Positions 15,472 through 18,343 of a stretch of DNA of 64,000 nucleotides are shown piece after piece. Both the position numbers and the translations under genes were made by a program. How positions within the stretch are numbered: the stretch's first letter is position 1; each line of letters opens with the position of its first letter. Origin of the DNA: an uncultured Phycisphaerales bacterium (GTDB lineage: Bacteria; Planctomycetota; Phycisphaerae; Tepidisphaerales; Tepidisphaeraceae); the NCBI GenBank assembly GCA_963758525.1, contig CAVWVQ010000003.1, forward strand, positions 3,584,001-3,648,000. The letters run 5' to 3'. The notes beneath the pieces are model-generated. The model worked only from the letters and a program-made list of their open reading frames with translations. It was not told the DNA's origin and made no database searches.

Positions 15472-15535
15472 TGCGGGGGATTGTAATGCGGGGATTGGGG
15501 GATGCCAGAAGGGGGGGAGAGGCAGGAAAAGACAA

Positions 15536-15657
15536 AGGAACGAAGGCACGGAGGCACGAAGGCACGAAGGGGAGGACGCTGCGCGGCGGCGGAGTGTATG
15601 TACTTCTTCCTGCCTTCCTTACCCTTCGTGCCTTCGTGCCTATGTGCCTTCGTGCCT
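15536..15657. repeat. Octamer foldback array (GGCACGAA)n ... (TTCGTGCC)n
   Basis: Tandem octamers with an inverted second arm; a second copy lies at 50846-51011. Confidence 0.85.
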
Positions 15658-15683
15658 TTCTCATTCTTCCCTCAATTTTGTTC

Positions 15684-15712
15684 TTGCAATTTCATGATTG
15701 GTTGGCAATAAT
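15684..15712 (+). promoter_or_regulatory. Putative sigma70 promoter of the leader-tRNA-rtcB transcript
   Basis: TTGCAA-17 nt-AATAAT in an AT-rich patch. Confidence 0.6.
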
Positions 15713-15747
15713 TCAACCTTAGCTTCGTTTGTGTCGAAAGAGGTAAC

Positions 15748-15837
15748 GTGCAACACTTGAGAATAACTATTAGCAGGGCCTGCCGGAAATCGCTTCAAGA
15801 GCGATTCGTCGGCATGGATCGACGCCCAGCGCACTGA
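15748..15837 (+). CDS. Putative leader peptide (29 aa, MQHLRITISRACRKSLQERFVGMDRRPAH)
   Basis: AAAGAGG SD 4 nt before GTG; six Arg codons of five kinds plus ATA, ATT, AAA, ATG and GAT; the stop overlaps alternative hairpins. Confidence 0.6.
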   Translation: MQHLRITISRACRKSLQERFVGMDRRPAH

Positions 15838-15940
15838 CTCCTCGCCTTTTCGGCCGGGAGTTCTTCCCGGCTGCCTGACACTTTTTTTTGTGATGCCCGG
15901 GAAGAATTGAATCGCAGCCGCGATCGCGCTGGCGGGCGTT
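15836..15940 (+). promoter_or_regulatory. Attenuator-like alternative hairpins with a T8 tract
   Basis: 15836-15846/15852-15862 competes with 15851-15859/15865-15873; T8 at 15882-15889. Confidence 0.5.
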
Positions 15941-15998
15941 CTTCGTTTTGTGGCTCGAAATGTCGGGGAAACAGGCGTTTCCCATTCGGAGATACTGC

Positions 15999-16070
15999 GC
16001 GCTGTTAGCTCAGAGGAAGAGCATTCCGTTGATAACGGAAAGGCCGGAGCGTCGAGAACTCCACGGCGCA
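15999..16070 (+). tRNA. tRNA-Ile(GAU) with an aberrant T arm (possibly pseudo or tRNA-like)
   Basis: Acceptor GCGCTGT/ACGGCGC, D stem GCTC/GAGC, anticodon arm TTCCG-TTGATAA-CGGAA. The T arm GGAGC-GTCGAGA-ACTCC lacks GTTCR. Confidence 0.8.
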
Positions 16071-16073
16071 TAC

Positions 16074-16147
16074 GCATCGATGGTCCAAATGGATAGGGCG
16101 CCGGACTACGAATCCGGACGATGGAGGTTCGACTCCTCCTCGATGCA
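16074..16147 (+). tRNA. tRNA-Arg(ACG)
   Basis: GCATCGA/TCGATGC acceptor, CCGGA-CTACGAA-TCCGG, GGAGG-TTCGACT-CCTCC, A20 present; no encoded CCA. Confidence 0.95.
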
Positions 16148-16164
16148 TTAGGTTGAGGCGAACT

Positions 16165-16200
16165 ATGGAACTCAGACGAAAACGGTGCTTCTGCAACTAG
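16165..16200 (+). CDS. Putative micro-ORF MELRRKRCFCN between the two tRNA-Arg genes
   Basis: GAGG SD 6 nt before ATG; run AGA CGA AAA CGG; TAG ends 1 nt before tRNA-Arg(UCU). Confidence 0.45.
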   Translation: MELRRKRCFCN

Positions 16201-16201
16201 A

Positions 16202-16275
16202 GCACCGGTAGCTCAACGGAACAGAGCAGCTCTCTTCTAAAGAGCTTGATGGGGGTTCGAATCCCTCCCGGTGCA
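16202..16275 (+). tRNA. tRNA-Arg(UCU)
   Basis: GCACCGG/CCGGTGC acceptor, GCTCT-CTTCTAA-AGAGC, GGGGG-TTCGAAT-CCCTC; no CCA. Confidence 0.95.
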
Positions 16276-16296
16276 TCGCAGCCTGCGGGCTGCCGC

Positions 16297-16369
16297 GCAC
16301 CGATAGCTCAACCGGCAGAGCTGCCGGCTTTTAACCGGAAGGTTGCGGGTTCGACTCCTGCTCGGTGCA
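16297..16369 (+). tRNA. tRNA-Lys(UUU)
   Basis: GCACCGA/TCGGTGC acceptor, CCGG-CTTTTAA-CCGG, GCGGG-TTCGACT-CCTGC; no CCA. Confidence 0.95.
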
Positions 16370-16371
16370 AA

Positions 16372-16445
16372 GGTTCGTTAGCTCAGATGGACAGAGCGCC
16401 GGCTTGTCACGCCGAAGGTCACGGGTTCGATCCCCGTACGGACCG
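16372..16445 (+). tRNA. tRNA-Asp(GUC)
   Basis: GGTTCGT/ACGGACC acceptor, G73 discriminator, CGGC-TTGTCAC-GCCG, ACGGG-TTCGATC-CCCGT. Confidence 0.95.
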
Positions 16446-16456
16446 CTGAAGAAAAC

Positions 16457-16530
16457 GGGAGCGTAGCTCAGCAGGCAGAGCGGGGGCCTCATAAGCCCCA
16501 GGCCGTTGGTTCGAATCCAACCGACTCCCA
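16457..16530 (+). tRNA. tRNA with CAU anticodon (Ile2 or elongator Met), bulged acceptor stem
   Basis: GGGAGCG/CG(A)CTCCC acceptor, GGGGC-CTCATAA-GCCCC, GTTGG-TTCGAAT-CCAAC. Confidence 0.88.
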
Positions 16531-16553
16531 TGTGCGCATGCGAAGAACGTCCC

Positions 16554-16658
16554 GTACCACGGGTTTCCAACCCGTGCGAGCAGCGCCAGAAGAAAGAAAT
16601 TAGTATTACCGGGCATTGGTCTACCACGCCAACTGCACGGGTTGGAAACCCGTGGTAC
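16554..16658. repeat. REP-like doublet, family B
   Basis: GTACCACGGGTTTCCAACCCGTG ... CACGGGTTGGAAACCCGTGGTAC; copies at 21765 and 52222. Confidence 0.9.
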
Positions 16659-16676
16659 GGTGTGTACGGGTGAATC

Positions 16677-18188
16677 ATGGCAGACGAATCGGAAAACTCC
16701 TCATCGGCGATCATCCCCACGGGCGAAGCGACGGGATTTCTGCCGGTGCGCAACGGCGCCGGCGGGAAGCCGATCACCGTCATTGGAACGCAGGCAATCC
16801 GCGACACGTTCGATTCGGTCTGTCTTCAACAGGCGATCAACTCGCGTCTGGCCCCGGGCGTCACGGATGTCGTGCTGAATCCCGATGCTCACCGCGGATA
16901 CGGCGCTCCGGTCGGGTCGGTGATCGTTTCGCCCACGCATATTTACCCGGGGCCGGTCGGAGTCGACATCAAATGTTCGATGAGCCTGTTGCAGTTCGAT
17001 CTTCCGGCCGAGGCAGTGGCGGGAGAGAAGATTCGCCGTGCGCTGATCAATGCGATTTTGGAGCGGACGCCGACCGGCGCGGGCAAGGGACTGCGCGACG
17101 CGCGCAAGGCGCGCCGCGTGAGTCCGCAAATCGGCAAGATGGCGGTGGTGGAAGGGGCTTCGCCGGCGGTCTGCGCTGCGCTGGGAGTTCCCGCGGAGTG
17201 GGCGTCGCGCTGCGAAGACGCGGCTCACGTCGGACACGACGACACGCCTGACGCTTTGGCGATGCGCCTTGATCGCATGCTTGCCAATGAACCGCGTGGC
17301 AAGTTCGAGTCGAGAATGAGCCAGATCGGAAGCTATGGCGGAGGGAATCACTTTGGCGAATGTGAGATCGTGCAGGTTGCCGACGACGACAGCATGCGCG
17401 CGGTGGCGGATGTGTTTGGCCTGCGCGACGGGCACGTCGCGTTTCTCTCGCATTGCGGGTCGCGCGGTTTCGGACATCAACTGGCAAGCGGTCAGTTCCG
17501 CTCGTTGCAGGAACGGTTTGCCAAGTGGTCCATCCCGCTGCCGGGAAATGATCGCGAGCTGGTCTACGCGCCGCTGGGAACTCCCGAGGCCGATGCGTAC
17601 ATTGACGACATGAGCCTGGGGGCGAACTTCGCAACGGTCAACCACATGGTGATCAATGCGCTGGTGCTCGAAGCATTCCAGGAAGTGATTCCGGGTGTGA
17701 CGGGCCGGCTCGTCTATTTCATCAGCCACAACATTGCGCGAAAGGAAGTCGTCGACAACCGGATTGCGTGGGTTCATCGCAAGGGAGCGACGCGCGCGTT
17801 CCCGGCGGGGCATCACGCGCTGAAGAACACGCCGTTCGCCCAGAGCGGGCATCCGATCCTGCTGCCGGGGAATCCGCGCGAAGGGTCGATCGTGATGGTT
17901 GCGCGCCCCGAGGCGGCCAAGAGCGTCTACAGCGTCAACCACGGCGCCGGCCGGCGTCTGGGCCGGCGCGATGCGATTCGCAAGCTGGATCAGGCCGAGG
18001 TGGACGCGGGCCTTGCCGAGTGCGATGTGATGAGCAATTGCCGGCAATATCCGAAGGACAAAGCGCCGGATGCGTATAAGGATTTTGGCGAAGTCGTGCG
18101 GTCGGTAGAGCTCGCAAAGCTGGCGCGCGGCGTCGCGCGGCTCAAGGCGCGGTTTGTCATTAAGGATTCATCGGACGCTGATGATTGA
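16677..18188 (+). CDS. rtcB: RtcB-family RNA ligase
   Basis: PDAHRGYGAPVG, VGVDIKC, GSYGGGNHFGE, HCGSRG, HNI, HRKGAT and NHGAGR motifs. Confidence 0.95.
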   Translation: MADESENSSSAIIPTGEATGFLPVRNGAGGKPITVIGTQAIRDTFDSVCLQQAINSRLAPGVTDVVLNPDAHRGYGAPVGSVIVSPTHIYPGPVGVDIKCSMSLLQFDLPAEAVAGEKIRRALINAILERTPTGAGKGLRDARKARRVSPQIGKMAVVEGASPAVCAALGVPAEWASRCEDAAHVGHDDTPDALAMRLDRMLANEPRGKFESRMSQIGSYGGGNHFGECEIVQVADDDSMRAVADVFGLRDGHVAFLSHCGSRGFGHQLASGQFRSLQERFAKWSIPLPGNDRELVYAPLGTPEADAYIDDMSLGANFATVNHMVINALVLEAFQEVIPGVTGRLVYFISHNIARKEVVDNRIAWVHRKGATRAFPAGHHALKNTPFAQSGHPILLPGNPREGSIVMVARPEAAKSVYSVNHGAGRRLGRRDAIRKLDQAEVDAGLAECDVMSNCRQYPKDKAPDAYKDFGEVVRSVELAKLARGVARLKARFVIKDSSDADD

Positions 18189-18233: not shown

Positions 18234-18343
18234 GTGGCACGGGCATCCTGCCCGTGTTAAAGGCGTGGTGCAGAAGAAAAAATCTGATATCAGCGTCTCT
18301 CTTCTGAACCACGCGGCTAACACGGGCAGGATGCCCGTGCCAC
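18234..18343. repeat. REP-like doublet, family A
   Basis: GTGGCACGGGCATCCTGCCCGTG ... CACGGGCAGGATGCCCGTGCCAC. Confidence 0.9.

Follow-up and report, generated by a model that had tools for sequence, protein, structure and literature searches.

The stretch of DNA analysed here, a 64-kb window of the genome of an uncultured bacterium of the family Tepidisphaeraceae (contig CAVWVQ010000003.1, 3,584,001-3,648,000), contains a plus-strand unit at 15684-18188 (window coordinates, used throughout unless a contig or locus is named) in which a short leader open reading frame (ORF) and alternative hairpins precede six tRNA genes and rtcB. The head of this unit is likely a sensor of ribosome speed, which would raise the output of spare tRNAs, and possibly that of rtcB, when decoding of the corresponding amino acids slows. 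Comparison with related loci strongly supports the central point, namely that a leader predicted to be read by the ribosome is tied to spare tRNAs. Across Tepidisphaeraceae there is a spare-tRNA array of about 28 genes; in this genome it exists as three non-overlapping pieces, and the six tRNA genes form one of them. Judged by sequence comparison, the conserved unit is the leader and the tRNA array, not the leader, the tRNAs, and rtcB. A sequence-only reading of this locus had listed a promoter, a 29-codon ORF with a Shine-Dalgarno (SD) sequence, alternative hairpins, six tRNA genes, and rtcB, and all of them were found where it had placed them. Its proposal that the ribosome itself is the sensor gained comparative support, with an upstream ORF in homologous arrays and a peptide content that tracks the tRNAs, whereas the canonical terminator of an attenuator was not found.

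Bacterial tRNA genes are usually regarded as housekeeping genes controlled by growth rate. If the proposed reading is true, the leader, with a composition that follows its array, would report decoding speed directly and in cis, and this signal would feed back on the supply of tRNA. Such control would account for supernumerary arrays that stay silent yet useful, would imply the rule that changed leader codons mean a changed inducer, and would connect spare tRNAs with the neighbouring repair genes for Ro, Y RNA, and RtcB. The division of one array into three complementary pieces, each with a re-tuned leader, is a clean natural experiment in the co-evolution of regulator and cargo. The one spare array that has been studied, that of Anabaena, is controlled by a repressor according to the available text of PMC10272220.

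The spare-tRNA array and its conserved leader

The tRNA genes of the window, all on the plus strand, are tRNA-Ile(GAU) at 15999-16070, tRNA-Arg(ACG) at 16074-16147, tRNA-Arg(UCU) at 16202-16275, tRNA-Lys(UUU) at 16297-16369, tRNA-Asp(GUC) at 16372-16446, and a tRNA(CAU) for Met or Ile2 at 16457-16529. Rfam scores them at 55.6-66.5 bits; ARAGORN calls five and misses the Ile gene, which has the lowest of these scores (55.6 bits) and an aberrant T-arm. None of the six has CCA after its 3' end, as had been noted from the letters. The genome as a whole gave 74 Rfam tRNA matches and 82 ARAGORN calls, and it contains one or more further copies for each of the six anticodons. Identity to the nearest second copy ranges from 50/75 to 57/74 for Arg-ACG (56/74), Arg-UCU (51/75), Lys-UUU (50/75), Asp-GUC (51/77), and CAU, and is 49/77 for Ile-GAU. 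Some second copies lie on smaller contigs that also carry tRNA types unique in the assembly, so these contigs appear to belong to the same genome. The possibility that the window holds the sole housekeeping copies is thus ruled out, since each anticodon has another, diverged copy. Compared with the consensus of 17 array orthologues, the Ile gene has four differences in its T-arm. The acceptor stem of the CAU gene has two mismatches or a bulge, with one or two extra bases in its 3' strand both here and in the consensus of 21 orthologues, and this oddity looks like a conserved feature and not decay.

The six tRNAs were used as DNA queries against 121 genomes of their family (a tally that includes the unpublished G004, on which no result rests); many of these genomes gave multi-tRNA matches, and 20 loci were fetched. 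These loci carry up to 29 tRNA genes, with 20-29 within 3-4.5 kb in relatives, and share one gene order: (Val)-Ile GAU-Arg ACG-Lys CUU-Arg UCU-Lys UUU-Leu CAG-Arg CCG-Ala UGC-Leu GAG-Leu CAA-Ser CGA-Ser GCU-Asp GUC-Phe-Gly GCC-Gly UCC-Thr CGU-Met CAU-Gln CUG-Gln UUG-Asn-Glu CUC-Glu UUC-Pro CGG-Tyr-Trp-Cys-His. The available text of PMC4758250 defines a tRNA array unit by at least 20 tRNA genes at a density of at least two per kb; the window piece, with six genes, falls below this definition, and the full arrays of the relatives satisfy it. Two more pieces were found in the genome of the window, each with its own exact core (described below) and leader. Piece 2 (L139) occupies C3:3763803-3766477 including the leader, with 15 tRNAs at C3:3764011-3766477, and piece 3 (L140) occupies C3:43672-44282, with Thr CGU, Tyr, and Trp at C3:43672-44047. 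Together the three pieces have 24 anticodons and none in common, for which a random draw of 6, 15, and 3 from 28 types gives P = 4.9e-5. Where tRNA genes are missing from the three pieces, a search of the gaps for their remnants returned just two weak matches, so a history of duplication followed by decay is not shown. In one relative, a full array shares a contig (L089:5001-9922) with a piece of six genes (Glu, Pro, Tyr, Trp, Cys, and His) 4 kb away; each of the two has its own leader. The leader of the small L089 piece contains four Pro residues, compared with one in its sibling.

When the region 15560-15998 was compared with all loci by blastn, a stretch of 20-35 nt with 94-100% identity was found upstream of nearly every array. 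Its centre is a 19-nt core, GGCCGGGAGTTCTTCCCGG, located in the window at 15852-15870 on the plus strand. A core-like hairpin is present in all 20 array loci that were found without the use of this motif, and a leader frame in 19 of them; the upstream stretch fetched for the other, L058, is too short to reach one. The question whether the upstream ORF is conserved at homologous loci, which the sequence-only reading had raised, is thereby answered in the affirmative. In these 20 loci the core is exact in 14, has one mismatch in two, and is shortened by 1-2 nt in four (one of them with a further substitution), the hairpin being retained. The genome of the window contains exactly three exact copies, one ahead of each array piece.

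An alignment of 17 array heads revealed a common layout: a TTGNNN-16/18-AATAAT-like promoter, a GACGTT-ATGTCGATGGAGA block that gives the SD sequence, an ATG or GTG start, and a stop. The stop codon sits immediately before CTCCC and 8-18 nt upstream of the core (8-15 nt in the 17-head alignment, up to 18 nt in the scan units described below). The frame comprises 27-43 codons across arrays, with poor conservation of sequence between start and stop. In the window, the corresponding plus-strand elements are a predicted sigma-70-like promoter at 15684-15712 (TTGCAA-17-AATAAT, 9/12 consensus positions), an SD-like AGAGG at 15739-15743, which lies 4 nt upstream of the start and aligns with the GGAGA/AGAGG block of the relatives, and a leader ORF at 15748-15837 with 29 codons, a GTG start, a TGA stop, and the predicted peptide VQHLRITISRACRKSLQERFVGMDRRPAH. 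The promoter of the window is weak when taken singly, because three promoter-like sites occur in 5 kb compared with 1.3 +/- 0.9 in shuffles; a comparable site ends 34-41 nt upstream of the leader start in 27 of 37 related units.

The core was also used as an exact pattern to scan 185,579 species genomes, which gave at least 80 loci and, after orientation, 82 segments. A leader ORF was scored when an SD-led frame of 20-48 codons ended at most 25 nt before the core. It was present in 32 of the 34 segments with a plus-strand tRNA within 1.5 kb after the core, compared with 2 of the 48 segments without such a tRNA (L098 and L122), which are mostly from unrelated phyla. The misses among the tRNA-linked segments were L080 and L104, and L104 has a frame under a looser SD list. 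The partner strand CCGGGAAG, which lies outside the search pattern, is conserved at 90% or more. The leader frame is a short SD-led ORF that is conserved in position, as leader-peptide attenuators require, and presumably translated. L098:4800-5600, on a Tepidisphaeraceae contig, is an orphan leader with frame, core, and partner strand, and no plus-strand tRNA was seen in the next 3.9 kb.

Leader composition and the proposed RNA switch

The relation between leader and array was evaluated in 37 units, each with a leader peptide of its own: three come from this genome, 30 from the scan, and four from the loci found earlier. Units that repeated a peptide were removed, as were those in which no frame satisfied the ORF criterion, and six units truncated by contig ends did not enter the tests that need array content. 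Manual corrections gave the window unit its Ile tRNA, which Rfam alone detects, supplied the array contents that the gap rule had cut from L089_0 and L055, and marked L089_1 as complete on the basis of L090. Where an array covers at least 17 amino-acid types, its leader contains 16-20 different amino acids over a length of 27-43 residues; equal-length windows from the long ORFs of this genome average 13-15. Four leaders hold all 20 amino acids in 32 residues (start counted as Met; P <= 1.2e-4 each), and with a nucleotide-shuffle null the diversity of 13 units gave a Fisher combined P of 7e-13, an optimistic figure since these units are related. The more amino-acid types an array serves, the more diverse its leader tends to be (Spearman rho 0.75, n = 31).

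For reduced arrays, defined as those with at most 13 amino-acid types, the cognate share of the leader (start codon skipped) was compared with that of the same residue set in 15 reference leaders. Leaders were enriched in the amino acids of their own array in 13 of 14 cases (Wilcoxon one-sided P = 1.2e-4; the exception is L135, with a single Ala tRNA), and shuffling of the leader-array pairings gave a permutation P of 5e-5, both values being optimistic because the units are related and so not independent. All three leaders of this genome follow the pattern plainly. The leader of the window, whose array serves Ile, Arg, Arg, Lys, Asp, and CAU, contains 6 Arg, 2 Ile, 1 Lys, 1 Asp, and 1 Met; its cognate share of 0.39, compared with 0.24 +/- 0.04, is reached by none of the 15 reference leaders. 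The leader of piece 2, MRHLSSSKFNGCQPERLASNRAELVNL, has a cognate share of 0.96 (25/26) compared with 0.74 in the reference; no I, D, T, Y, or W occurs in it, precisely the five residues for which the other two pieces alone have tRNAs. The leader of piece 3, MRQYWYTSTSNTFAEGRFVYTTLGVTTRS, with seven T, three Y, and one W, reaches 0.39 compared with 0.12. In L044, which is outside the data set and has an array for Val, Ile, Arg, Lys, Ser, Asp, Phe, Thr, and Trp, 25 of 29 leader residues are cognate. The G+C content at third codon positions (GC3) is 0.56 in leaders compared with 0.73 in long ORFs; hence, leaders use rarer codons.

The core is self-complementary (2:3 hairpin) and common to two further predicted plus-strand hairpins. 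P1 (15837-15861) joins the C-rich strand right behind the stop to the 5' half of the core; P2 (15862-15905) joins the 3' half of the core to CCGGGAAGA, and a T8 tract (15882-15889) lies in its loop, at least 10 nt past the core hairpin. Folding was performed for 36 related sequences from the stop codon to the fourth strand. Free RNA was predicted to form P1 in 34/36 and P2 in 36/36 folds, and P1 is also in the minimum free energy structure of free RNA. When 16 nt from the stop were masked as a mimic of a terminating ribosome, the core hairpin appeared in 20/36 folds. In this model, P1+P2 and the core hairpin would be mutually exclusive helices, set for a choice by ribosome position. U-rich runs recur 10-20 nt past the core hairpin, within the P2 loop, in the related sequences; as a conjecture, this spacing fits a hairpin-dependent pause better than a terminator.

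We propose that the short leader frame is translated and that a ribosome reaching the stop would melt P1 and favour the core hairpin, whereas a ribosome stalled further upstream, or absent, would leave P1+P2. P1+P2 would be the ON state, an assignment made because cognate codons are enriched, by analogy with the his and ilv leaders. Transcription would run through the hairpin with 26-bp arms into rtcB. In a more speculative version, the leader of the full array might be a pangram peptide that meters the tRNA supply of each amino acid and is rewritten as the array loses genes, so that each piece would be a separately inducible, isotype-specific reserve of tRNAs, and one of them would have captured rtcB. 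If this tentative version is true, damaged tRNAs for Arg, Lys, Asp, Ile, and Met would be both replaced and re-ligated at the signal of the same stalled ribosome.

Several findings weigh against the sensor reading; those concerning rtcB are given with that gene below. Two of the six window tRNAs, Ile-GAU and CAU, look non-standard. The expectation of the sequence-only reading that leader codons covary with the anticodons was borne out for amino acids (13/14, P = 5e-5) and failed for codons: 222 of 363 leader codons (0.61) are readable by the anticodons of their own array, compared with 0.66 expected from genome codon usage (eight multi-isoacceptor families, plain wobble rules). Arg is the sole family clearly above codon expectation (85 compared with 75), and 4 of the 7 Thr codons of leader 3 differ from ACG. 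The match of leader and array is thus by amino acid, not by codon, and the codons that signal a shortage would often be ones that the spare tRNAs do not read. The relatedness of the units noted above also counts here, as does the circularity of core invariance among the motif-scan loci, which were found with that very pattern. With respect to structure, P2 persisted in 14/36 folds despite the masked stop region, and the fold of the window leader is not unusual compared with shuffles (z = -1.63). RNAalifold on the 36 sequences recovered the invariant core hairpin alone, with no compensatory changes; the inner P2 stem seems to covary by eye, in a poorly aligned region. In a simple model, stalls near the 3' end and near the 5' end of the frame have opposite structural effects. 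A terminator scan and folding revealed no canonical terminator (GC hairpin plus U tract) at the switch. The attenuator proposed earlier therefore stands as far as its alternative hairpins are concerned and falls as to the T8 tract as its terminator, since T8 sits in the P2 loop and the scan reports none.

The enterobacterial trp, his, thr, and ilvGMEDA leaders are multivalent leader-peptide transcription attenuators of amino-acid operons. The unit described here resembles them in its short SD-led frame rich in product-linked residues, its stop beside exclusive helices, and its constitutive-looking promoter. It differs in that the product is tRNA instead of biosynthetic enzymes, that the frame can sample all 20 amino acids, that the frame ends before the first helix strand instead of overlapping it, and that no GC hairpin with a U-tract terminator was found. 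Attenuation of ermB, bmrCD, and mef/mel, as far as the available sources describe it, likewise senses a slowed ribosome through a leader peptide and RNA rearrangement; there the signal is a drug-bound ribosome at a specific peptide motif, whereas here composition tracks tRNA isotypes.

The closest known arrays are the trn L-arrays. The available text of PMC8421152 describes the L-array of Anabaena sp. PCC 7120 as a set of supernumerary, horizontally spread tRNA genes that are silent until translation is impaired and co-regulated with rtcB; it reports that rtcB adjoins L-arrays in some cyanobacteria and lists Planctomycetes among the phyla with L-arrays. Like the L-arrays so described, the loci of the relatives hold a long same-strand run of tRNA genes at short spacing in fixed order, with redundant isoacceptors, whereas the window piece by itself has six genes, and all three pieces together reach 24. 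In Anabaena, control is exerted by the ribbon-helix-helix (RHH) repressor TrcR, which binds direct repeats at the promoter (PMC10272220, available text), and neither a leader peptide nor an RNA switch comes up in the available text on this array; control here would be by a predicted leader peptide and RNA switch, known from sequence. Of this architecture, which the sequence-only reading did not know to have been described, a part is already in the literature. Leader-peptide control of tRNA arrays was not found in the literature searched (few subscription journals, no supplements), and no work on the regulation of Planctomycetes tRNA arrays was found there, judging by title or abstract, whereas spare arrays co-regulated with rtcB are already published, as the accessible parts of PMC8421152 and PMC10272220 make clear.

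rtcB, RNA-repair neighbours, and rival explanations

rtcB (16677-18188, plus strand) encodes a 503-aa protein of the RNA 3'-phosphate/5'-OH ligase family. Its Pfam RtcB match (3.1e-100) spans residues 52-496, and the protein aligns along its length with Pyrococcus RtcB (4dwr, 1.6e-57), the conserved His/Cys blocks being in place; the alignment displays the blocks PDxHxGYG, DIxC, GNHF, GSRGxGHQ, HRKGAT, and HGAGR. The NCBIfam equivalog cut-offs were not reached. rtcB is the single copy found in the genome. No rtcR, rtcA, or Ro60/TROVE gene is adjacent, in agreement with the sequence-only reading, and RtcR, RtcA, and TROVE were not found even genome-wide (90.9% complete, 6% contamination). No YrlA match in this genome is above threshold, and those in the window are artefacts that span tRNA junctions.

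Orthologues of rtcB with 68-73% identity were found in six relatives. The sequence-only reading had suggested a tRNA search upstream of the closest rtcB homologues; these six have no array within 1.5 kb, and a scan of 19 rtcB loci found no arrays and three single tRNAs. Directly upstream of rtcB, four of the six relatives have one or two YrlA (Y RNA-like) matches (L021:5741-6028, L022:5786-6043, L005:2999-3272, and L007:62-207), seven in all at 48.9-77 bits, two of which are above the gathering score. A long perfect hairpin lies between the YrlA genes and rtcB in some relatives, and three relatives gave weak TROVE matches. A Ro-like gene of 500-573 aa is located downstream, on the same strand, of at least seven distinct arrays (L066:4289-6007, L115:2493-3992, and five others), a count that may be higher because the segments end 5 kb after the core. 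Its product distantly matches solved TROVE-domain proteins in a PDB sequence search (9l5y_A, E = 4.7e-5) and has no Pfam or NCBIfam match; no homologue was found in the genome of the window by tblastn. Arrays thus recur beside genes of the Ro/Y-RNA/RtcB repair set.

The Salmonella repair operon has the layout rsr-yrlBA-rtcBA. The locus described here is similar in that rtcB lies downstream of genes for small structured tRNA-like RNAs, and the relatives have YrlA upstream of rtcB and Ro-like genes nearby. It differs in that RtcR, RtcA, TROVE, and an above-threshold YrlA were not found in this genome, and that complete cloverleaf tRNA genes take the position of the Y RNA. In Salmonella, the rtcB repair operon is under the sigma-54 activator RtcR, as cited in the available text of PMC10272220.

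The adjacency of array and rtcB is unique to this genome among those examined. The two are on the same strand with a gap of 147 nt, in which no promoter-like site was reported. The link of leader and array to rtcB is weak, and the following findings tell against extending the sensor to this gene. The flanks of the 20 array loci of the relatives, fetched from approximately 2 kb ahead of the array start to 2-6 kb beyond it, contain no rtcB; neither do the 82 scan segments over the span between 400 nt ahead of the core and 5 kb past it. The neighbours of rtcB are not shared with the relatives (no synteny), and the perfect hairpin with 26-bp arms stands between the tRNAs and rtcB. Co-control of rtcB by the leader would be possible on the evidence of this one genome.

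That the leader gates the tRNA array alone, rtcB being a separate transcription unit brought next to it by an accident of rearrangement, has in our view an even chance. The want of rtcB at the array loci and scan segments fits this explanation, as do the six orthologues without an upstream array (four with YrlA in that place), the flanking genes that differ from those of the relatives, and the hairpin that occupies the gap. Against a separate unit stand the common strand, the mere 147 nt between the last tRNA and rtcB, the lack of a reported promoter-like site in the gap, and the lack of a T tract past the hairpin; the hairpin between YrlA and rtcB in the relatives suggests that such a structure need not end a unit, and arrays recur by repair genes, with TROVE in seven units and rtcB in cyanobacteria. 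The full model of the sequence-only reading takes the other side: damage to these tRNAs would stall the leader ribosome, and one transcript would give both replacement tRNAs and the ligase. We regard this as doubtful, given that the adjacency occurs in this genome alone, that co-transcription is a prediction, and that the leader codons are not those the array anticodons read, so that the spare tRNAs would often fail to relieve the inducing stall. In its favour are all the evidence for the leader as a sensor, the enrichment of leader 1 in Arg, Ile, Lys, Asp, and Met (0.39 compared with 0.24), the alignment of the RtcB motifs with a solved RtcB, the failure to find RtcR, hence the need for other control, and the co-induction of array and rtcB under translational stress in Anabaena that the available text of PMC8421152 reports.

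The leader might also be a meter of translation capacity in general, reacting to ribosome slowdown of every kind, for instance under ribosome-targeting antibiotics or global starvation, and not to particular tRNAs or amino acids. Nearly all 20 amino acids are represented in full-array leaders, a lack of translation leads to the same P1+P2 fold as early stalling, and several ribosome-targeting antibiotics induce the Anabaena L-array (PMC8421152 and PMC10272220, available text). The composition of such a meter need not track the array, yet 13 of 14 reduced arrays have leaders enriched in their own amino acids and leader diversity declines along with array content (rho 0.75), and we consider this explanation unlikely. 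Quite improbable, in our estimate, is that the core and hairpins form a static element, either a processing or stability signal or a protein operator, with a frame that is incidental or a peptide that is itself functional. The core is conserved in sequence, loop included, and without compensatory changes, as for a specific binding site; it is a palindrome as DNA, and no terminator was found. A static element would leave unexplained why peptide composition tracks array content; moreover, the stop keeps its spacing of 8-18 nt to the core, and the SD sequence and start keep their places, while the peptide drifts, and the frame is open in 32/34 array-linked segments compared with 2/48 controls. 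The reading that we favour remains that of a ribosome-speed sensor ahead of spare tRNAs.

Other features of the locus

Between the leader and the Ile gene, a plus-strand stretch at approximately 15910-15985 is probably a remnant of the Val tRNA gene with which the array begins, as suggested by alignment with the T-arm region of the Val tRNA of the relatives; Rfam gave no tRNA match at E <= 1 in this stretch. A by-eye reading of 15888-15955 as a decayed YrlA Y RNA was rejected, since the stretch aligns with the decayed Val tRNA of the arrays and has no Rfam YrlA match. Elsewhere in the genome, at C3:4444824-4445528 on the minus strand, ARAGORN calls five close, partly overlapping tRNA-Ser(GGA) genes where Rfam finds no tRNA, probably a repeat artefact.

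The rtcB unit is flanked by pdxJ on the minus strand and by a gene for a xylose-isomerase-like TIM-barrel protein. A palindromic repeat at 15508-15671 (strand unspecified), with inverted repeats I1-I3, lies between pdxJ and the array promoter; it has many blastn copies and is a high-copy genomic family outside the switch. A perfect 26-nt inverted repeat (I4) with arms 57 nt apart, at 16552-16660, fills the gap between the last tRNA and rtcB, and inspection of the sequence found no T tract downstream of this hairpin. Sub-threshold Rfam matches to plant and animal miRNAs at the palindromic repeats were rejected as artefacts of long hairpins. Long palindromes at 15508-15671, 16552-16660, and 18235-18342 flank the array and rtcB, the first belonging to a family with dozens of copies on contig C3, and the arm sequence of the 16552-16660 repeat is also present in loci of a congener.

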